From a virus: DNA of 64,000 nucleotides. The notes beneath the pieces were generated by a model. The model was not told the DNA's origin, made no database searches, and was given only the letters and a program-made list of their open reading frames with translations. A program made the translations under genes and the position numbers. The DNA lies in the IMG/VR virus record IMGVR_UViG_3300025237_000002, positions 1 to 64,000 of that record; one strand, given 5' to 3'. This document shows, in pieces, positions 18,556 through 31,013 of this stretch. Each line of letters begins with the position of its first letter. Position 1 is the stretch's first letter.

Positions 18556-19010
18556 CTTGTTTGTTAAATATATTTGTAGTATATTTGCAGAGTCAAAATT
18601 CAGGAATGGTAAATTGGTAAAGCACCATGGGGGAACTGTGGGATGTAGGTTCGAATCCTTAAGTATAGTGAAAGCTAAACGACTATGGTAGTATTGTAGG
18701 TTCAAGTCCTACTTCCTGAACAACTAAATGGTTAATAATCAACCATTTAAAAAAAGATTAAAAAAAATGTGATTTTTGCTTGTTTATTAAATATATATAT
18801 AGTACATTTGCAGAGTCGAAAGAAAGTTATTATGGTTAACATAAAACTTTTGAAAATAAATTCAAAAAGACTTGTTTATTACAATATAATGTAGTATATT
18901 TGCAGAGTCGAAAGAAAGTTATTATAGTGGTAAGTTATCACAATAAAAACTTTTTTAAATTAAAAGCAAAAAGACTTGTTTATTAAAATAATAAGTTGTA
19001 TATTTGCAAA
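18556..19010 (+). promoter_or_regulatory. Four tandem near-consensus promoters (-7 elements at 18580, 18803, 18895, 18999)
   Basis: Each is CTTGTTT-n-TAyATTTGCArAGTC. Confidence 0.8.
18600..18720 (+). tRNA. tRNA-like RNA with two T-arms or an insertion in the anticodon arm
   Basis: TCAGGAA/TTCCTGA acceptor; D-loop TGGTA; two GTAGG-TTCRA-TCCT arms. Confidence 0.5.
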
Positions 19011-19049
19011 GTCGTTTAGAAATAGACGACACGTTCTTAAAAATATTGA

Positions 19050-19932
19050 AAATAATGGGGTGCTTATACTCCTTCCTCTTCGGGGGATAAGATAAACCTA
19101 GTAATAGGGATAAAGCGATGTATTCAAAGTGCATTGCGTTGAGAAGACTTCTTCGGGAGTTTTAACAATCTATGTAAGCAATTAATCACGAACCATACAT
19201 CGAGGGGCTACTGTCATAGATGAATTGAGTTCACCTCCTAGCTTCGGGGGGTTGAGTTAGAAATAGCAAAAGATGATTAATTAGTTTTTGGTTGAAACAT
19301 GTAAAAAGTGGATAGGCTGAATTCATCATAATTTGTTATGGAATGTTACCTTGAAATGCGGCACCTAACAGAGTCGTAGATTGATAGGAGATGAACCTTC
19401 GGGTGATTCTTTAAATGTAAATCTAATTAATGAAGAAATGACGTGACTGTAAAAAGTTGCAACGGGATGTTGATAGCTAAAGTGCTCAAAAGGCAACACG
19501 CTAGTCAATCGCAAGACACATCCTGTAAGAGAGAGCATCGCTATACAACTAAGGTTAATAGCCTTAATTTTTAATTTGATAAAAATTGTAAAGAGAAAGT
19601 TCTTGTGGACATGGATAAAAAATTAAGTTATTCTACTGAAAAATGTAGATGATGGAGGCTCTCAAGGCTGAAGTTAAAACGAGAGAAGTATCGTTAGTAA
19701 GAGGTGGGAACCTTTGCATCCCTTCCAAGGGAACTAGGTAATGAAAGTTGTTTATATCAATTCATGGTGAGAAAGGTGAAAGCCTAATCGTTCTCTTCGG
19801 AGAATAAAAGAGTTTGCAGTTGCTAATTTAAAACTGTCTTAGTGATACCTACGGACACGAAAGTGAAAGTGTGTGATATAGGGAAACCGAAAACGAAAGG
19901 TATTATAAACGCCCAAACACTCAAGCGTTTAA
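19050..19932 (+). ncRNA. Giant structured non-coding RNA (~880 nt; GOLLD/ROOL-class candidate or new class)
   Basis: No ORF of 60 aa or more; five CTTCGG motifs and many GNRA-capped stems; strong promoter and boxA-like site upstream; tRNA-like gene directly downstream. Confidence 0.75.
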
Positions 19933-19934
19933 TC

Positions 19935-20009
19935 GGGGATGTAGCTTAATAGAGAGCGGCTTGGTTTCAAATCCAAGAGGATGTAGTATCGATTCTACCA
20001 TCCCCACCA
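19935..20009 (+). tRNA. Aberrant tRNA-like RNA (8-nt anticodon loop TTTCAAAT, encoded CCA)
   Basis: GGGGATG/CATCCCC-ACCA; D-loop lacks GG; T-arm GTAG-TATCGATT-CTAC. Confidence 0.6.
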
Positions 20010-20059
20010 ATAGACTTGATAAAGCCTCTTCCTTATTGGAACGTAATTAAGTATAGTAT

Positions 20060-20129
20060 GGGTATACAATTAAGGTTCTCACCAACCTTTAAGGTTGTAT
20101 CATAGGTTCAAATCCTTCTATACCCACTA
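20060..20129 (+). tRNA. tRNA-like RNA (acceptor plus T-arm, no canonical D-arm)
   Basis: GGGTATA/TATACCC-ACTA; AGG-TTCAAAT-CCT; 3' end shared with 23870-24061. Confidence 0.45.
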
Positions 20130-20136
20130 AAATTAA

Positions 20137-20205
20137 AGAGGTCTCGTCTAATTAAAGATGGTCAGCGTAAGTTGACAGATGTGGTTGGAAACACCATAGT
20201 CTCTA
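20137..20205 (+). tRNA. tRNA-like RNA with a GTAA tetraloop in place of the anticodon loop
   Basis: D-arm GTCT-AATTAA-AGAT; GTCAGC-GTAA-GTTGAC; T-arm GTGGT-TGGAAAC-ACCAT. Confidence 0.45.
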
Positions 20206-20382
20206 AAGAAGTTTAGGTTCGGTAGTCCGATAGTGAAGTACAAACGATAGTTTAACGACAACCTTTATACTAAAATAGTTCTCATTGGCTATTCAATTCA
20301 ATGGGTATGACCCAACTTTAATGTTGGTTGATACTACAAGGGGAGTGTCGTAAAAACCTACAAGTTAGTCGTGTAGCGAAAA

Positions 20383-20454
20383 GGGAATGTCGTCTAATAG
20401 AAGGCAGCTGGCGTGAAGCTGGAAAATGTAGTATCAAATCTACCATTCCCACTA
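20383..20454 (+). tRNA. Aberrant tRNA-like RNA (5-nt GTGAA loop)
   Basis: GGGAATG/CATTCCC-ACTA; same D-loop AATAGA and T-arm type GTAG-TATCAAAT-CTAC as 19935. Confidence 0.55.
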
Positions 20455-20662
20455 AAGGATATGCACGAATGCAGTTAAGCGATACCTTTCAAATCGGAGG
20501 AACTGTACAAGGAGTAACTGAAATAGGTTTTCCAAAATAGATTTTTTGAGTAGTGGGTGTAAATACCGTATAAAGGTAAGCAACAAGAAAGAAAAAATAA
20601 TAGTAAATCCTAAGACTTGCGAAAGCTGGTTCAATAACAAATAGTTAGGTAATCTATTAAAT

Positions 20663-20743
20663 GGGGGTATAGCCCACACCTGTCGTGAAGATGGTGAAGT
20701 GGTAACTATGCTGAGAATGTAACTGTGAATGTTGCTACCTCCA
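20663..20743 (+). tRNA. tRNA-like RNA
   Basis: GGGGGTA/TACCTCC-A acceptor; GTAAC-TGTGAAT-GTTGC T-like arm. Confidence 0.35.
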
Positions 20744-20826
20744 CAAATTGAGTTTAGTTTTGCGGTTAAGTTCTCAATTAAATAAAAAACTGGTGGGGTG
20801 TTAAACCCCATCGTAAACGCCCAATT

Positions 20827-20902
20827 GACACTGGGATAGCTTAGTAAAGAGCAACCCGAAATTATAAGAGGTAGTGTGAGGTATTGAATCCTCAATCAGT
20901 GT
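20827..20902 (+). tRNA. tRNA-like RNA ending the first ncRNA operon
   Basis: ACACTGG/TCAGTGT; GCTT-AGTAAA-GAGC; TGAGG-TATTGAAT-CCTCA; T-run follows. Confidence 0.4.
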
Positions 20903-21008
20903 TTTTTAAAAATAAATGAAAATAAATTAGGATGTTTGAATACTTTTATGTATTTTTGCATACTTATTATAAACGCACTAAGTGCAAAACGATTAAAAAA
21001 TAGAAATT

Positions 21009-21110
21009 ATGACAACAGTAACGACATATACGAAACAGTATCAACCGAAGGGCGGGAAGCCACAAGGTCAACTGAGTATGCGTTGTTATAACGATGAAGA
21101 AGAAGGATAA
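21009..21110 (+). CDS. 33-aa attenuator leader peptide MTTVTTYTKQYQPKGGKPQGQLSMRCYNDEEEG
   Basis: A-rich start after the promoter element TATTTTTG (20951-20958); codons 2-21 are almost all Thr/Tyr/Lys/Gln/Pro/Gly. Confidence 0.8.
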   Translation: MTTVTTYTKQYQPKGGKPQGQLSMRCYNDEEEG

Positions 21111-21138
21111 GTTCTTAATCATAATAAACAATATAGCT

Positions 21139-21170
21139 AAACCCAGTTGAAATCTTCAACTGGGTTTTTT
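21139..21170 (+). terminator. Attenuator terminator upstream of the tRNA array
   Basis: 13-bp stem AAACCCAGTTGAA/TTCAACTGGGTTT with a T-run; the 5' arm can instead pair with TCAACTGAGT (21068-21077). Confidence 0.85.
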
Positions 21171-21235
21171 GCGTTCTATAGGTTTTTCATCACCTGATAA
21201 AAAAGATGAATCTTTGAAATATTGTATTTTTTTAT

Positions 21236-21308
21236 CGGGAAGTATATCAATTGGTAGATTACGTGCTTTGGGAGTACGAGGTTGGAGGTTCGAGTCCTCT
21301 CTTTCCGA
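21236..21308 (+). tRNA. tRNA-Pro(TGG)
   Basis: CGTGC-TTTGGGA-GTACG; canonical T-loop. Confidence 0.9.
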
Positions 21309-21368
21309 CTTAGGGAGACTGTTATTAATTCATAGGACCAATTGTGGTAATCATAGAATTAAATGTAT

Positions 21369-21444
21369 CGGGGTGTGGTGCAGTAGGCGATACACGCCTG
21401 TTTTGGAAACAGGAGGTTCGAGGGTTCGAATCCCTTTGCCCCGA
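21369..21444 (+). tRNA. tRNA-Pro(TGG)
   Basis: CCTGT-TTTGGAA-ACAGG; C1-G72, A73. Confidence 0.9.
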
Positions 21445-21450
21445 CAAAAA

Positions 21451-21600
21451 ATAAACTTGTAGTTTAAAATGGCAACAACAAGTATGTATGATAATTAGCT
21501 GAACAGGTACCGTCAGTGAAAGGTGTATAGAAAGGGGTTGCAGAATTAGAATGTGTGGTAGAGGACCGCAAGATGTGAGTTCAAATCTCACCAAAGTTAT
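21451..21600 (+). ncRNA. tRNA-like RNA with a large central insertion
   Basis: D-like arm, ~75-nt interior, T-arm GTGAG-TTCAAAT-CTCAC, imperfect acceptor. Confidence 0.4.
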
Positions 21601-21608
21601 TTTTATAT

Positions 21609-21703
21609 CTACCAATGCACGAGTCGGTTTAAGTGGCTGGGCTTGGACCCCAGTGACAGCTTCATGAGGTTGCTGTCCGTAGGTTCGAATCCTACTTGGT
21701 AGA
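21609..21703 (+). tRNA. tRNA-Pro(TGG) with a long variable arm
   Basis: CTGGG-CTTGGAC-CCCAG; variable arm GACAGC...GCTGTC. Confidence 0.8.
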
Positions 21704-21769
21704 CGAGTTGGAGACTGTTATTAATTCATAGGACTGTCAGATACAGTGTATAAGCATAGAATTAAATCT

Positions 21770-21843
21770 TGGGATATCGACTAGCGGTCCAAGTCATCTG
21801 GTTTTGAACCAGAAGAGCGAGGGTTCGAATCCCTCTATCCTAA
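21770..21843 (+). tRNA. tRNA-Gln(TTG)
   Basis: TCTGG-TTTTGAA-CCAGA. Confidence 0.9.
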
Positions 21844-21911
21844 CTACCAATATATTGTCTATTTAGTCGATATATTGGCAAAATAGATAACATATTGTCT
21901 ATTTTATTACT

Positions 21912-21996
21912 GGGGGTGCGCCAAAGTTGGAGAGTTGGGGCGGTCTGTAAAACCGTTGCGTAAGCTGAGTAGGTTCGATTCCTATCACCCCCACCA
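21912..21996 (+). tRNA. tRNA-Tyr(GTA)
   Basis: GCGGT-CTGTAAA-ACCGT, long variable arm, encoded CCA. Confidence 0.92.
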
Positions 21997-22006
21997 GTAT
22001 ATATAT

Positions 22007-22079
22007 TCCCTCGAAGCTCAAGTGGACGGGCACCCCGCTTTTAACGGGGAGATTGCGGGTTCGAAGCCCGCTGGGGGAA
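22007..22079 (+). tRNA. tRNA-Lys(TTT)
   Basis: CCCCG-CTTTTAA-CGGGG. Confidence 0.9.
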
Positions 22080-22124
22080 CTGAGAGAGTTATTACGTTCT
22101 CTTCGACAAGAAAAAACGTAATTT

Positions 22125-22206
22125 GGGAGTATTGAGCAACTGGTCGCTCAGCAGATTGTAAATCTGTCGCCTTCGGGCATTGTGGGTTCGAATCCCTCTA
22201 TTCCCA
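22125..22206 (+). tRNA. tRNA-Tyr(GTA)
   Basis: GCAGA-TTGTAAA-TCTGT; variable arm GCC-TTCG-GGC. Confidence 0.9.
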
Positions 22207-22208
22207 CT

Positions 22209-22276
22209 AGAGTTCGTCTAAGCTAAAAGGCATCGCCTGAACGGTGAAAATGTAGGAGAATACCCTATACTCTTAA
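22209..22276 (+). pseudogene. Degenerate tRNA (possibly Phe GAA)
   Basis: Cloverleaf with a non-canonical T-loop AGAATAC and a short acceptor. Confidence 0.35.
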
Positions 22277-22280
22277 CTAT

Positions 22281-22391
22281 GGCTATAGTACTACGGTGTA
22301 CCATTCGATGAATATATTGAGTTGAATGAGAGTGGATGTGTGAGTGTTACATCACATCTTCGGTTGGGTTCGAATCCCTAGGTAGCCACCA
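22281..22391 (+). ncRNA. Enlarged tRNA-like RNA with encoded CCA
   Basis: GGCTAT/GTAGCC-ACCA; GTAC-TACGGT-GTAC; long CATTC/GAATG and GATG/CATC arms; T-loop TTCGAAT. Confidence 0.55.
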
Positions 22392-22419
22392 GATGTATGT
22401 TTTTGTACATTAATAATAT

Positions 22420-22493
22420 ACCTTCGTAGCTCAACTGGCTAGAGCACCTGACTTTTAATCAGGGGGTTGGGGGTTCGAGTCCCTTCGGGGGTA
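22420..22493 (+). tRNA. tRNA-Lys(TTT)
   Basis: CCTGA-CTTTTAA-TCAGG. Confidence 0.93.
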
Positions 22494-22536
22494 CTGAGAG
22501 GGTTCTATGCTCCCTTAACACAGAAAAAGCATAACT

Positions 22537-22611
22537 GCTACCTTAGTATAAAGGCGATTACTCTGCATTTGTAACGCAGAAATCTCGGTTCGATTCCGTG
22601 AGGTAGCTCCA
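22537..22611 (+). tRNA. tRNA-Thr(TGT)
   Basis: CTGCA-TTTGTAA-CGCAG; encoded CCA. Confidence 0.85.
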
Positions 22612-22692
22612 AAACTACTAACTCATACCGAAAAGTATGTTAATTTGGATGATTATGTATACCACTAATCATCCAAGTGTTAGAACAAATAT

Positions 22693-22765
22693 TGCTCCAT
22701 GGTGTAATTGGTAACACGTCTGTTTTTGGTGCAGAAGAGTGTGGGTTCGAGACCCGCTGGAGTAA
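22693..22765 (+). tRNA. tRNA-Gln(TTG)
   Basis: TCTGT-TTTTGGT-GCAGA. Confidence 0.9.
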
Positions 22766-22772
22766 CAAATAT

Positions 22773-22846
22773 TGCCCTATGGTGTAATTGGTTAACATAC
22801 GAGATTTTGGCTCTCGTGAGTGTGGGTTCGAGTCCCACTAGGGCTT
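22773..22846 (+). tRNA. tRNA-Gln(TTG)
   Basis: CGAGA-TTTTGGC-TCTCG. Confidence 0.9.
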
Positions 22847-22888
22847 CAAAGGGAGATGTTCACCTAACATCTTTAAAAATAGGTTTAT

Positions 22889-22975
22889 CCCCTCATAGCT
22901 CAGTTGGTTTGGCGAAAGCCTTAGAGCATCCGTCTTTTAAACGGAGGGTCGTAGGTTCGAATCCTACTGGGGGGA
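22889..22975 (+). tRNA. tRNA-Lys(TTT) with a GGC-GAAA-GCC hairpin inserted in the D-loop
   Basis: TCCGT-CTTTTAA-ACGGA. Confidence 0.85.
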
Positions 22976-22982
22976 CAATAAA

Positions 22983-23053
22983 CGATGTGTGGTGTAATGT
23001 TAGCACGAGTTCCATTGGGGGACTTAGAAGAGGTTCAATTCCTTTCTCATCGA
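22983..23053 (+). tRNA. Degenerate tRNA, probably Pro(TGG)
   Basis: C1-G72, A73; irregular anticodon loop containing TTGG. Confidence 0.5.
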
Positions 23054-23058
23054 CAAAT

Positions 23059-23144
23059 GCGGTGTTAGTGTAATGGACAAATATTCTAGATGAAAACACG
23101 CAACCATTCAGGTTGAGATAGAGGTTCGATTCCTTTATGCCGCT
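23059..23144 (+). tRNA. Degenerate Gly-like tRNA (D-loop insertion, 5-nt loop ATTCA)
   Basis: GCGGTGT/ATGCCGC, U73, canonical T-arm. Confidence 0.45.
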
Positions 23145-23321
23145 CTAAAAATGATTGATATGAAAGAAATGAAATTTAGATATACTGGTGAATTATCTGA
23201 AGAAGCTAAGGTTAAATTAGATAAATTAAAGTTAAGAAAAGAAACAACATTGAAAAACCTACAAGATGATTATGACTCTGGTAAGTTTGACGATGAATTT
23301 AAAAACCTATAAAATTATGTT

Positions 23322-23513
23322 ATGGATATTGAGAATTATTCAATCGGAGATGTATTAAGGAACAAACAAGGAATTAATGGTAAGGTGATTGGAAAGACGA
23401 TAAATTCAATTAATTTATATCATACAGCTAGAAGTAGTAAAGGTATTAATTGTACTCAATGGTACACATTACAAGACATAATTAAAAATTTTAAACATGC
23501 CGTCATAGTTTAA
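23322..23513 (+). CDS. hypothetical protein inside the tRNA array
   Basis: 63-aa ORF whose 3' end overlaps the tRNA-Thr 5' end. Confidence 0.5.
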   Translation: MDIENYSIGDVLRNKQGINGKVIGKTINSINLYHTARSSKGINCTQWYTLQDIIKNFKHAVIV

Positions 23514-23574
23514 GTGGTTAGAATCCTAGTGTGGTATATTAGGGGTGTCGCTTCGATTGCGATTGATGGCTCCA
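23499..23574 (+). tRNA. tRNA-Thr(GGT)
   Basis: CTAGT-GTGGTAT-ATTAG; encoded CCA. Confidence 0.8.
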
Positions 23575-23620
23575 CGACCAGCTGATAGTCTGGGATAACA
23601 ATAAATTAAAACTATCAAAA

Positions 23621-23694
23621 GCGAGTAACGCATAAGTGGTGGTGCGCCAGCCTTCCAAGCTGGAATAGAGTCGGTTCGATACCGTCTACTCGCT
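23621..23694 (+). tRNA. tRNA-Gly(TCC)
   Basis: CCAGC-CTTCCAA-GCTGG; U73. Confidence 0.9.
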
Positions 23695-23789
23695 CAAAAA
23701 AGGGGTGCTTTAATATAACCAATGACAATAGCGTTATAAATTGCTGAACTTTCTACCAAATTGATTTTTGTCGATGATATAAGGTAGTT

Positions 23790-23862
23790 GTCCTATTAGT
23801 TTAACTGGATAAAACTGGGGGTGCTAAACCCTCGGATGTGGGTTCGAATCCCATATAGGAAA
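23790..23862 (+). tRNA. tRNA with CTA at the anticodon position (amber-suppressor-like, G33)
   Basis: GGGGG-TGCTAAA-CCCTC; canonical D- and T-arms; 1-72 mismatch. Confidence 0.65.
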
Positions 23863-23869
23863 CAATTAA

Positions 23870-24061
23870 GGGTATACTTTTGGTGTGATGAACCGACCCT
23901 CCGAGAATGGAGGTGCTTTAACTAGCTAAGTATTGAAAACGTTGAGAACATAAACTAAAGTATAGATGTACGAATACTGGGTCTGAATTATGTTAGTAGG
24001 CAAGTAAGTGGATACACGACTTCCAATCGGTATCTAGGTTTGAAACCTTCTATACCCACTA
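23870..24061 (+). ncRNA. ~190-nt RNA closed by a tRNA-like acceptor and T-arm
   Basis: GGGTATA...TATACCC-ACTA; 3' part resembles a Gly(TCC) D/anticodon/T region. Confidence 0.45.
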
Positions 24062-24118
24062 AAAACTATTTACTTATATTTAATTTTTTAGTATATTTGT
24101 TTATAAAAATTAAATATT

Positions 24119-24418
24119 ATGTATGATGAAAAAGTAAGTATGGGAAATAACCCTATGACAGTTAAAAAGTTGTCAGAATTAGAAAATATAATTTCTAACT
24201 TTAAAGTAGAATTAAGTAAATTAAGTGAAAATAATTATGAATTACTTAATAAGGTAGATAAAATGGTTGGTTGCGAACTACAAGATGATTGTGCAGAAAA
24301 ATCAAGTCCAACGGATGAAAATATTGTTGATGTCCTCAACGAATGTATCCGTGAATTAGGTTATAAAAATAATAATTTTAGAGAGCAATTAAGTAGATTA
24401 GGTGGTATTGTTGGATAA
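24119..24418 (+). CDS. hypothetical coiled-coil protein
   Basis: 99-aa ORF after a promoter motif. Confidence 0.6.
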   Translation: MYDEKVSMGNNPMTVKKLSELENIISNFKVELSKLSENNYELLNKVDKMVGCELQDDCAEKSSPTDENIVDVLNECIRELGYKNNNFREQLSRLGGIVG

Positions 24419-24479
24419 CCATTAAGAATGATTACTGGAGTAGAGTACCTTAATGGTCAGGTTGATAACCTCTACAAAT

Positions 24480-24551
24480 GCGGGAATAGCTCAACGGTAG
24501 AGCGTTAGATTACCAATTTAAAGGTTGTGGGTTCGAATCCCATTTCCCGCC
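24480..24551 (+). tRNA. tRNA-Gly(ACC)
   Basis: Gly-type body GCGGGAA/TTCCCGC; TTAGA-TTACCAA-TTTAA. Confidence 0.85.
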
Positions 24552-24560
24552 CAATACAAT

Positions 24561-24646
24561 GCAGTAGTCGCATAGAGGTCGATTGCCCCAGATTTCCAAT
24601 CTGGTAAGATAATATCACATCGCTGGTTCGAATCCAGTCTACTGCT
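24561..24646 (+). tRNA. tRNA-Gly(TCC) with a long variable arm
   Basis: CCAGA-TTTCCAA-TCTGG; ~17-nt variable region. Confidence 0.85.
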
Positions 24647-24709
24647 CAACACGAGTTTCATCTGAAACATGTATTTTAAACATGGTTTCAGACATAACTC
24701 AAACATTAT

Positions 24710-24793
24710 GCCTACGTCCCATAGAGGTCGATTGGACTAGATTTGTAATCTAGAATGGAAACATCATCGTGGGTTCGAATCCCTCCGTAGGCT
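24710..24793 (+). tRNA. tRNA-Thr(TGT) with a long variable arm
   Basis: CTAGA-TTTGTAA-TCTAG; variable arm ATG-GAAA-CAT. Confidence 0.85.
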
Positions 24794-24860
24794 CATAAAA
24801 AATACAATTTTCTTGTGTAATCCAATTTTTTTCATTATCTTTGTAATCTAAATACAAACT

Positions 24861-28234: not shown

Positions 28235-29122
28235 ATGAATAATTGGATTAAGGAATGGGTGAATATGCCTCATTTTGTTATTCCAACTAGAGATACTGAA
28301 AAGAGGAATCAAATTGATATTACGGATGTTCAAAAGATTGCAGACCTTAACACAAGCAAGCAACCAAAGTATCCAATTTATATAATATCAAAAGGTAGAT
28401 TCAAATACCCACAGACAGCAAGAGCTTTAGAAGGTCTTGGAATTGAATACAAGATAGTTATTGAACCAACTGAGTATGATGACTATTCTGCGGTAATAGA
28501 TAAAGAACGAATATTAATACTACCTTTCAGTGACTTAGGTCAAGGTTCAATACCAGCAAGAAATTGGGTATTAGACCATTCAATAGCTAATGGAGATAAA
28601 AGGCATTGGATATTAGATGACAATCTAAATGGGTTTGGTTATCAAAAAGGAGGTCGGAGAATTACTACAAAGACTAATGGTGATTTGTTTAGGGAGTGTG
28701 AAGACTTTGTAGATAGATATAAGAATATCAAAATTGCTGGAATAAGATATAGGTTTAATCACAATTATGTGAAATCACCTTATTATTTGAACACTCGTAT
28801 TTACTCTTGTATCTTGATGGATAACACCATACAACATAGATGGAGAGGGAAGTATAATGAAGATACCGATTTAAGTTTAAGGGTATTGAAGGATGGAGAT
28901 TGTACGATGTTGTTCACTTGGTGCTATTGCAACAAGGCTGGAACGTTAAGTATGAAGGGTGGTAACACCAATACAGTATATGGAGATACTGATAATAGGA
29001 AAGAATTCGCTGAAAGTTTAAAACAACAACACCCAGATGTGGTAAAAGTTGTTTGGAGATATGAAAGATGGCATCATGAAGTAAACTATAAGGGATTTAG
29101 AGAAAACAAATTAATTAAATGA
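28235..29122 (+). CDS. GREB1-like / TET-associated (TAGT) GT-A glycosyltransferase
   Basis: YPIYIISKGR, ARNWVLDH, WILDDN, EDTDLSLRVLKDG, KGGNT. Confidence 0.75.
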   Translation: MNNWIKEWVNMPHFVIPTRDTEKRNQIDITDVQKIADLNTSKQPKYPIYIISKGRFKYPQTARALEGLGIEYKIVIEPTEYDDYSAVIDKERILILPFSDLGQGSIPARNWVLDHSIANGDKRHWILDDNLNGFGYQKGGRRITTKTNGDLFRECEDFVDRYKNIKIAGIRYRFNHNYVKSPYYLNTRIYSCILMDNTIQHRWRGKYNEDTDLSLRVLKDGDCTMLFTWCYCNKAGTLSMKGGNTNTVYGDTDNRKEFAESLKQQHPDVVKVVWRYERWHHEVNYKGFRENKLIK

Positions 29123-29616
29123 TTGAGATTAGAATAAATGATGAACAAAGACAAAGAGCTAGTGAACTATATGAATTTAACGTTTTAAAAGGTTCGGTAA
29201 CAAAAGGAGAAGGGAATGAAGTTGGTGCTCTTGGAGAAATAATAGTATTAGATTACTATGGTGATTCAGCTGAATACGTTGGGGATTATGATTATGATTT
29301 AATAATAAAAGGTAAGAAGGTTGATGTTAAAACTAAGAAACAAAATTTAAGACCAGCTAAACATCATTCTTGTAACATATTCTCATATAATACAAAACAA
29401 AAATGTGATTGGTATTGTTTCGTATTTATACATCAATCATTAAATTTTGGATGGATTATGGGATGGTTAACTAAAGATGATTTTTATAAAAAAGCAATCT
29501 TTAGAAGAAAGGGTGAAGTAGACCCAACATTAAATACTAATTGGAGTTTTAGAGGTGATTGTTACACTATTAAAGTACCTGAATTAGATTTATATAATGA
29601 AGAGATAACAAATTAA
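29119..29616 (+). CDS. PD-(D/E)XK-like nuclease
   Basis: GALGE...YDLII...VDVKT. Confidence 0.55.
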   Translation: MIEIRINDEQRQRASELYEFNVLKGSVTKGEGNEVGALGEIIVLDYYGDSAEYVGDYDYDLIIKGKKVDVKTKKQNLRPAKHHSCNIFSYNTKQKCDWYCFVFIHQSLNFGWIMGWLTKDDFYKKAIFRRKGEVDPTLNTNWSFRGDCYTIKVPELDLYNEEITN

Positions 29617-29822
29617 TTAAAGTAAGTCAGAGATTCTAACGCACTACGGTGAGGAACTTCGAGACACCACAGTTTAAGGTAGGAGACGAAAGTCGCACGC
29701 ACTACCGAGGGTGCAATTCAAACAGACTGAGAGGATGAACTGCTCTATGAGGTCGGGTATGAAGCAAATAGGTAAATGTTAGATTAAAACAGGATTTCGG
29801 GTAAGCTCAACTTACTTTAATT
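29615..29822 (+). ncRNA. rnpB: Miniature RNase P RNA (type-A-like catalytic domain, S-domain reduced)
   Basis: P1-P6 and P15-P17 pairings, CR-I-like GAGGAACTTCGAGAC, L15 GGGTA, CR-V-like ACAGGATTTCGG. Confidence 0.85.
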
Positions 29823-29838
29823 AAAATAAAAATACAAT

Positions 29839-30246
29839 ATGAATGATAATACAATTTTAGAACACTATGGTTGGACCATTGAATGTGAATCACCATTTGA
29901 AATACGACATGAAGATGGTTCGTTTGCCAGTGGGCAAGCAGCTTATACAGTTCTAATAGACTTAGTAGAAGACTATGAATGTGAAGTTATTAAGAAACCG
30001 ATTGAATTAACATTTGGACCTGATAATCATTTCGACCCTGTTGCAATAAAACATAACAATAAGGGTGAACGAATTGATTTCGCTAAAACGGTAAGATGGT
30101 TTATTAATAACGCTGAAAATTCTATTGAAAATTCTTACGATGAAGGTGCGCCAAGGCGTGTTGAAATGTATCAGTTATGTAATAGTCTTAGAAATCAATT
30201 AAAGGCTCAATTATCAAAAGAACAAATACGAGAAATTAAATTATGA
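29839..30246 (+). CDS. hypothetical protein
   Basis: 135-aa ORF. Confidence 0.6.
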   Translation: MNDNTILEHYGWTIECESPFEIRHEDGSFASGQAAYTVLIDLVEDYECEVIKKPIELTFGPDNHFDPVAIKHNNKGERIDFAKTVRWFINNAENSIENSYDEGAPRRVEMYQLCNSLRNQLKAQLSKEQIREIKL

Positions 30247-31013
30247 ATAGAGGTTACGGAGCAATATTAGGTGATTTAGCGGGGAAACCCTTTGAAAAGA
30301 AGTTTAGTATTAAGAAAAAGGATATCAAGGTTTACGCTGAAGATACAAACATTACTGATGATTCAGTAATGACATTAGCTACAATGGATGCTATTTTAAG
30401 CAACATTGATTACCAAACAGCATATCGCTATTGGGGTAATAAATACTTTAGTGATTACTATGGTAAATCGTTCAAGCTATGGTTGAAAGACCCAGCTATG
30501 AAGATGGATTCATATGGTAACGGATGTCTTATGAGAATGTCACCAATACCTCATTACTTCCGTAACAATGACTATTCTTCAATCATAGAATCAGTTGGTA
30601 GTTGTACAACTTCTCATAATCATGCATATTCAAGAAAGGCTGTTATTATATTGAATTACATTTATAATATGATTTATGAAGGTAAAACAAAAGTTGAGAT
30701 TTGGGATTGGGTTAAAGAGAATTATCCATTACCTAAACGATTTAATAAGTTTGTAGAGATAGATGCAACCTCACAAGGTACTTTACCTTACGTGTTACAT
30801 TGTTTCTTATCCACTACATCAACACACGCTTGTATTGAAATGGCGATTGGTTATGGTGGTGATACAGATACAAATGCGTCAATTGCTGCTGAATTATCAG
30901 CAACATTTTATGACGATATTTCGAAAGAAGATGTCGAGTATGTTAACAGTCATCTAGATGATTTTCAACTAGATACGTTAACAAGGTTTAATAATGCATT
31001 AAATGAAATTTAG
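30243..31013 (+). CDS. ADP-ribosylglycohydrolase (DraG/ARH family)
   Basis: GAILGDLAG, TDDSVMT, SYGNGCLMR, GGDTDTNASIA. Confidence 0.92.
   Translation: MNRGYGAILGDLAGKPFEKKFSIKKKDIKVYAEDTNITDDSVMTLATMDAILSNIDYQTAYRYWGNKYFSDYYGKSFKLWLKDPAMKMDSYGNGCLMRMSPIPHYFRNNDYSSIIESVGSCTTSHNHAYSRKAVIILNYIYNMIYEGKTKVEIWDWVKENYPLPKRFNKFVEIDATSQGTLPYVLHCFLSTTSTHACIEMAIGYGGDTDTNASIAAELSATFYDDISKEDVEYVNSHLDDFQLDTLTRFNNALNEI

Follow-up and report, generated by a model that had tools for sequence, protein, structure and literature searches.

A putative miniature RNase P RNA of bacterial type-A descent encoded in phage genomes

In the IMG/VR virus record IMGVR_UViG_3300025237_000002, a gene of 212 nucleotides (nt) was identified at positions 29613-29824 of the plus strand, which probably encodes an RNase P RNA derived from the bacterial type A, with a complete catalytic domain (C-domain) and with almost all of the specificity domain (S-domain) and helix P18 lost. 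The record comprises 110,535 bp and was estimated by CheckV to be ~31% complete, corresponding to a source phage genome of roughly 350 kb; the first 64 kb of the record were analysed here and are referred to as the window. The RNA belongs to a family which is phage-borne and occurs in one copy per genome, most of its carriers being huge phages that encode a large set of tRNAs. At the level of sequence comparison, the homology of this family to RNase P RNA, the conservation of the conserved regions (CR) CR-I, CR-IV and CR-V, and the linkage to tRNA arrays could be demonstrated. Catalysis on pre-tRNA by the miniature RNA is predicted from the same comparisons.

Few ribozymes are universal; RNase P RNA is among them, and to our knowledge it has so far been regarded as a gene of cells and organelles. 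In the papers and preprints searched, which were those readable without a subscription, no account of an RNase P RNA encoded by a phage was found. RNase P is not mentioned in the huge-phage paper which released the genomes LR745206 and LR756502, and a paper on the annotation of rnpB mentions no virus. It appears reasonably likely that the family represents a virus-specific lineage of active bacterial-type RNase P without S-domain, which would be the first natural C-domain-only form outside the Archaea and a virus-encoded ribozyme from the core machinery of tRNA maturation, and which, in the largest phages, would form a holoenzyme with a phage-encoded RnpA protein.

The RNA family and the covariation of its helices

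Relatives of the window RNA were identified by blastn in LR745206.1 and LR756502.1, the genomes of two uncultured phages (634,780 and 642,428 bp, respectively). Here, P1, P2, P4, P5, P6, the stems of the S-domain stub and P15-P17 are all present, with different sequences and with their complementarity preserved. Further members were collected from IMG/VR and metagenomes by patterns of shared motifs, followed by screening with nhmmer and a covariance model. The resulting alignment comprises 45 distinct core sequences, many of them located on contigs of 146-499 kb, and some of the family-bearing records are 100% complete (CheckV). The cores have a length of 152-295 nt, save for one match of 125 nt, and the window core, with 154 nt, is among the shortest. 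A single copy was present in each of the five phage genomes searched as a whole, namely two genomes of 100% completeness (CheckV), the two deposited assemblies of 634-642 kb and the partial record of the window. Unannotated members were found in the Microbacterium phage A3Wally (L314 1238-1413; MZ150783.1 ~93882-94057; also in Big4 and Zooman), in the Stenotrophomonas phage vB_SmaS-DLP_6 (L315 1350-1542; KU682439.2 ~105815-106007) and, on the minus strand, in an uncultured phage of 735 kb (L316 1004-1187; LR756501.1 ~181323-181506).

In the alignment of the 45 sequences, standard pairs were present in 94.3% of the pair cells, compared to 73.9% after shuffling of columns and only 30-44% when the partners were slid. 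Double-sided changes were identified in 32 of the 37 pairs, and none of 500 shuffles attained any of five covariation measures. The alignment had been fitted to the nested helices, with P6 outside the model; P6 was nevertheless 87-90% paired, with the compensatory versions CAGUU/AACUG, CUUCU/AGAAG, GAACC/GGUUC and CUGCU/AGCAG. In an unfitted MAFFT alignment of 12 sequences, RNAalifold predicted P4 with its bulge, P5, both stub stems and P16, and 17 of the 24 predicted pairs were compensatory. P1-P3 lie outside the covariance models, and their support comes from seven well-aligned sequences and from the alignment to RF00373, the Rfam family of archaeal RNase P. As judged from these alignments, all helices, including both pseudoknots, were shown to be under selection.

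Trained on 27 homologs, with the window sequence left out, a covariance model identified 29651-29804 with 141 bits (E 2e-25) as its sole match in the 64 kb. This bears on the possibility that the RNA is a decaying rnpB fragment or a chance intergenic resemblance, which would be consistent with the absence of an Rfam match at the gathering score and with an ordinary fold energy. The single-sequence fold recovers P1, but is not significant compared to shuffles (z -1.56), and the case therefore rests on the comparison across sequences. Against a remnant or chance origin, about 45 distinct homologs preserve every helix by compensatory changes, the gene is present in single copy in complete huge-phage genomes, the E-value was obtained with an independent model, and two exact-pattern scans, with one genome per species for 185,579 prokaryote species, revealed no true cellular copy. 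Such an origin is thus very improbable.

Several candidates from the searches were rejected. The only match to the exact 18-mer AACAGGATTTCGGGTAAG, L002, was a chance match, and among the 58 loci with the gapped pattern GGTCGGGT..TCGGGTAAG, none was homologous. For the pattern ACACCAC..GGGTGCAA, almost all of the matches listed were due to chance, the true member being L140. The two scans of cellular genomes gave 0 and 16 matches, the latter being chance matches in protein-coding sequence. With the covariance model, no match was obtained in five bacterial genomes, a negative which carries no information: of ~600 candidates in each genome, only 150 were scored, and a canonical S-domain represents a large insertion for this model. 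Ten small viral contigs (L087, L090, L091, L092, L095-L097 and L101-L103) match TAGGAGAC..GAGGGTGCAA with an identical span of 54 nt and are missed by both the hidden Markov model and the covariance model of the family; these contigs may share an unrelated conserved sequence.

Structure of the window RNA

A first assignment of the RNA, made from the window sequence alone (the original prediction), had listed P2, P3, CR-I, P4, P5, P6, P15-P17 and the GGGUA of loop L15, and all of these were found where it had placed them. The P1 helix is also present, but extends by 2 bp at both ends beyond the span given there, resulting in the 212 nt of 29613-29824. All features described in this section are located on the plus strand.

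P1 (29613-29627/29810-29824) consists of 15 bp, with compensatory changes in seven well-aligned homologs, and the terminal helices of many family members have 11-16 bp, compared to ~7-8 in shuffles. It is followed by the linker J1/2, CAGAGAU (29628-29634), of which CAGAG is common to several homologs, and by P2, UCUAAC (29635-29640/29778-29783). Across the family, the complementary pairs at the place of P2 vary, as in TCCATC/GATGGA, CACATAC/GTATGTG and AAGCTATC/GATAGCTT. An ungapped-helix search for P2 performed no better than shuffled controls in the AT-rich flanks; the support for this helix comes from the RF00373 alignment, from the seven well-aligned homologs and from the varied complementary pairs. 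P3 is a minimal hairpin, CAC-UACG-GUG (29642-29651), which is longer in other members.

CR-I of the window RNA, GAGGAACUUCGAGAC, starts at 29651. CR-I and the 5' strand of P4, AGGAACUUCGAGA (29652-29664), were aligned to GAGGAAAGUCC of RF00373 and of RF00010, the family of the bacterial type A. In the AGGAA stretch, A29652, G29653, A29655 and A29656 are invariant in the family. P4 (29656-29664/29795-29802) contains one bulged U and is 97% paired, with double changes in seven of its eight pairs. The bulged U29659, the equivalent of E. coli U69, and the following C29660 are invariant as well. P5, CACC/GGUG (29665-29668/29710-29713), is 100% paired, and the P6 pseudoknot is formed by CAGUU (29670-29674) and AACUG (29738-29742), the latter sitting in the loop of P17.

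The almost complete S-domain deletion and the absence of P18 had likewise been predicted, and both were borne out: between the strands of P5, a stub of 29 nt is present (29678-29706), in which GGUAG/CUACC surrounds GAC-GAAA-GUC, and the Rfam alignments skip the S-domain block. The stub consists of a P7-like stem (29678-29682/29702-29706) and an inner hairpin of 3 bp with a GAAA loop (29685-29694), both of which covary, with an internal loop of 7 nt beside the hairpin on the 3' side. Since G29683, G29685, G29695, A29701 and C29702 are invariant in the family, the stub is under selection and no mere linker. Its position corresponds to P7 and the first hairpin after P7 (P8) in RF00010. By an analogy drawn in part from PMC13462272, this suggests that the GAAA loop may provide a tetraloop contact like those of bacterial P8/P9 with P1 and P4.

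The 3' strand of P5, the CR-IV-like GCAAUUCAAACAG and the 5' strand of P15 (29710-29725) were aligned to GCAAggccAAAUAG of RF00010 and RF00373. Invariant nucleotides in this region are, in the numbering of the RNA, G101, C102, A103 and A104, which form the GCAA after P5, and A108. P15 (29717-29720/29760-29763) has UGAA as its 3' strand. P16 (29725-29728/29751-29754) and P17 (29730-29733/29743-29746), counted together, are 98% paired, with double changes in all pairs. On the 3' side of L15, GGGUA (29755-29759) was aligned to cCGGGUagg of RF00010; G29756, G29757 and U29758 are invariant and take the place of the GGU of E. coli which pairs with the 3'-CCA of the tRNA.

Downstream of P15, the joining segment J15/2, GCAAAUAGGUAAAUG, with 14 nt, and the 3' strand of P2 (together 29764-29783) were aligned to CuAGAugAAUG of RF00010. 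J15/2 stands in for P18 and J18/2, P18 being absent from the window RNA; an insert at the position of P18 is present in some members, for example L083, L085 and L065. Ahead of P2, AG within UAG and AU within AAUG are invariant. The segment 29784-29803, containing J2/4 and CR-V, UUAAAACAGGA, and the 3' strand of P4, UUUCGGGU (29795-29802), was aligned to ACAGAACCCGGCUUA. Within ACAGGA of CR-V, the C, the next A and the A three positions further on are invariant, and so is the UA after P4 (U29802-A29803). Judged by the RF00010 consensus, the family-invariant nucleotides are positions of known function in RNase P.

Relationship to known RNase P RNAs

With Rfam 15, in which RF00010 has a gathering threshold of 100 bits, only tRNAs were matched in the whole window at the gathering score, and no RNase P was identified. 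An RNase P match was also not obtained at E<=10 on 601 nt around the RNA. The original prediction had expected the conserved regions to align to an RNase P model; RF00010 did not match the phage record, while RF00373, a member of the same clan, aligned to 29620-29817 with 18.9 bits (E 8e-4) when it was run against 223 nt alone. This alignment runs over the full length, with only the S-domain block skipped, and it places P1, P2, P3, GAGGAA, P5, GCAA, P15, GGGUA, UAG..AAUG, ACAG and UA as originally assigned. For the window RNA taken alone, the RF00373 alignment is suggestive.

Other members of the family were matched by RF00010 directly, namely L295 with 71.7 bits (E 7e-20), L259 with 56.1 bits (E 1.3e-14), L094 with 55.5 bits (E 1e-16), L083 with 47.4 bits (E 1.5e-11), L273 with 46.8 bits (E 1.8e-11), L085 with 41.1 bits (E 2e-09) and L093 with 28.2 bits (E 5e-05), and L086 was matched by RF00373 with 46.2 bits (E 6.8e-10). 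The match of L094 spans positions 1-367 of RF00010, with 25 nt in place of 110 S-domain positions and 1 nt in place of 23 P18 positions. The Rfam alignments pass over 110 model positions following P8/P9, which comprise CR-II and CR-III, the reader of the T-loop and D-loop, which are missing from the miniature RNAs. No family in Rfam 15 catches these RNAs at threshold.

A full-length relative, L062, was identified within a tRNA array on an 83-kb viral contig (IMGVR_UViG_3300033153_006411, 8540-8900). It represents a type-A RNase P RNA of 361 nt, which scores 157.8 bits with RF00010 and thus lies above the gathering threshold. Like the miniature RNA it is phage-borne, and its CR-I is the consensus form of the miniature family, GAGGAAGUUCGGGACACCAC, from which CR-I of the window deviates at three positions; the covariance model of the miniature family detects L062 with 49.7 bits. 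Unlike the miniature RNA, it has retained the whole S-domain and P18. L062 likely provides a picture of the ancestral state of the miniature family, and with a full-length RNA on one side and members without S-domain on the other, phage RNase P RNAs span from complete to C-domain-only. The original assignment as a miniature type-A-like RNase P RNA is upheld by the end-to-end RNase P alignment, by homologs such as L094 with E 1e-16 against RF00010, and by the CR-I consensus shared with L062.

Compared to bacterial type A (rnpB; E. coli M1 RNA, T. maritima P RNA; RF00010), the phage RNA has P1-P2-P3, P5, CR-I, CR-IV and CR-V in common, as well as the P4 pseudoknot with the bulged U, P15-P16-P17 with P6, GGGUA in L15, a J18/2-like UAG..AAUG before P2 and ACAGAA before the 3' strand of P4. 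It differs in its length of 212 nt, typical bacterial P RNAs having 340-420 nt (PMC4919922), in the absence of the 110 S-domain positions after P8/P9 with CR-II and CR-III and of P18, in being encoded by a phage, and in a score far under the RF00010 gathering score. The parts retained in the phage RNA have defined roles in bacteria: CR-I, CR-IV, CR-V and the active site (P4) lie in the C-domain, as does the region binding RnpA, and the S-domain binds the D- and T-loops and adds affinity and specificity (PMC4919922). According to PMC4919922 (its refs 75-77), pre-tRNA is cleaved by the isolated bacterial C-domain whether RnpA is present or not, though at a lower rate and affinity. Engineered C-domain-only constructs of this kind have the same list of parts as the phage RNA; however, they are laboratory truncations, whereas the phage RNA was naturally selected and has kept a conserved P7/P8-like stub.

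A natural C-domain RNA has been described for the archaeal type T of Pyrobaculum and the Thermoproteaceae, in which the S-domain is reduced approximately to a hairpin and CR-II is lost (PMC7191817, PMC13462272, PMC4919922). The phage RNA resembles type T in keeping the C-domain and in having the S-domain cut to a small stub. For type T, the stub was modelled to retain one T-loop which still touches the tRNA elbow (PMC13462272); in the phage stub, a conserved U..A T-loop motif was not recognised. The archaeal partner proteins are Rpp29, Rpp30, Pop5 and L7Ae, whereas RnpA is the partner expected for the phage RNA. In contrast to type T, the phage RNA descends from the bacterial type A and is encoded by phages, and two of these also contain a bacterial-type RnpA. 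Within Rfam, the family is related best to RF00010 and RF00373, and its closest full-length relative is of type A. The reduction of the S-domain in the phages is an event independent of the archaeal type T.

tRNA genes, the protein partner and the proposed function

The window contains an array of 20-22 tRNA genes (18600-24794, plus strand), located 4.9-11 kb upstream of the RNA on the same strand. Among the 45 family loci, 25 have a tRNA within 2 kb, always on the same strand, and several of the RNA genes are flanked by tRNAs on both sides. Duplicates are present in the window array for Gln (four copies), Pro, Thr and Gly (three copies each). It also includes a tRNA with a CUA anticodon of the amber suppressor type (23790-23863, plus strand) and a tRNA match of 121 nt (18600-18720, plus strand), which may contain an insertion. 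A canonical T-loop, GTTCGA or GTTCAA, was identified in 20 of the 22 window tRNAs; the exceptions are two tRNA-like RNAs at 19935-20006 and ~20383-20455, with the T-arms GUAGUAUCGAUUCUAC and GUAGUAUCAAAUCUAC in place of GTTCRA. Both are missed by ARAGORN, and Rfam gives the RNA at 19935 a score of 44.6 bits.

Since the C-domain is kept by selection, the likeliest function of the miniature RNA would be the cleavage of 5' leaders from pre-tRNA with the help of RnpA. According to this proposal, the RNA would be transcribed during infection and would fold like the C-domain of bacterial RNase P. It would bind the RnpA of the host, and the two relatives of ~640 kb could use their own. It would then remove the 5' leaders of phage and possibly also host pre-tRNAs by the customary metal-ion mechanism at P4, the substrate being placed by the acceptor stem, the leader and the pairing of L15 with CCA, so that the elbow with its T-loop and D-loop would not be read. 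The likely benefit would be a processing capacity for the burst of phage tRNAs which is independent of the expression of host rnpB.

A special role of the RNA for the two tRNA-like RNAs with unusual T- and D-loops, as originally proposed, was not supported, since 20 of the 22 tRNAs are canonical and the family is found in ordinary tRNA arrays elsewhere. In a broader form, the RNA might be a catalytic ribozyme derived from RNase P which has been retargeted to these tRNA-like RNAs, to phage mRNAs or to other structured transcripts; RNase MRP has diverged from RNase P in a similar manner. The presence of the RNAs at 19935 and 20383 fits such a change of substrate, as does the position of the window gene 4.9 kb off the tRNA array amid unrelated genes, and the loss of the S-domain would ease the need for a canonical T-loop and D-loop (PMC4919922). 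However, besides the canonical T-loops of the window tRNAs, the gene is embedded in same-strand arrays of ordinary tRNAs in many relatives, and the CCA-pairing GGU of L15 is invariant, so that retargeting is considered unlikely.

The RnpA protein was identified in both phages of ~640 kb. The homologs, located at 1465-1812 of L297 (LR745206.1 ~76.4 kb) and at 1435-1803 of L296 (LR756502.1 ~525.1 kb), match PF00825 with 49-52 bits, above the cut-off, and contain the RNR motif KRAVDRNRxKR. For a bacterial-type RNase P, LR745206.1 and LR756502.1 encode the protein as well as the RNA subunit. For the window RNA, the RnpA of the host is assumed to be the protein partner.

The retained C-domain holds the RnpA-binding region in bacteria (PMC4919922), and an own RnpA was not found in most of the complete family-bearing genomes. 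Both would also be expected if the RNA were a non-catalytic decoy, mimicking the C-domain and sequestering host RnpA, or pre-tRNA, to stop the maturation of host tRNAs. A decoy appears quite improbable: the bulged U of P4, the A-run of CR-I, CR-V, the GGU of L15 and P6 are conserved but not obviously needed for protein binding, the at least 20 tRNAs of the phage itself need processing, and two relatives supply their own RnpA.

Several observations weigh against an active type-A-derived RNase P RNA. The Rfam scores of all miniature forms are below the gathering score (28-72 bits for the members), and the RF00373 score of the window RNA would lose significance across the whole window. The tRNA nearest to the window RNA is 4.9 kb away, and a scan for promoters and terminators around the RNA revealed nothing exceeding shuffles. 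The 3'-CCA is encoded in only 3 of 20 window tRNA genes, and therefore CCA would have to be added before the GGU of L15 could find its partner; the 110-kb record revealed no CCA-adding enzyme (PF01743). An RnpA gene was not identified in this record, which covers ~31% of the genome, nor in 27 other family-bearing records, complete genomes included. Most of the phages would therefore need the RnpA of the host, no protein, or another partner.

At the locus itself, the RNA gene is housed in a gap of 222 nt between the open reading frames 29119-29616 and 29839-30246, and no open reading frame of at least 30 amino acids crosses it on either strand. Its G+C content is 41%, compared to 30-31% in the flanks of 2 kb. 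The flanking genes code for a TET-associated glycosyltransferase (28235-29122; PF20691, E 2e-34) and an ADP-ribosylglycohydrolase (30243-31013; PF03747, E 2e-22), and the neighbour genes have no connection to RNA processing. The PF20691 glycosyltransferase hints at a hypermodified phage DNA. A conserved protein neighbour was not found, the flanking open reading frames differing between the window and the first two homologs.

Since A3Wally and DLP_6, which both carry a member, are phages in culture, the question of its function is directly testable. With its 212 nt, the RNA also represents a compact ribozyme scaffold. If the proposed function holds true, the family would provide a natural experiment on the minimal RNA of a bacterial-type RNase P, which bears on the role of the S-domain in vivo, and the translation-related repertoire of phages would grow from tRNAs and synthetases to an enzyme for the maturation of tRNA.

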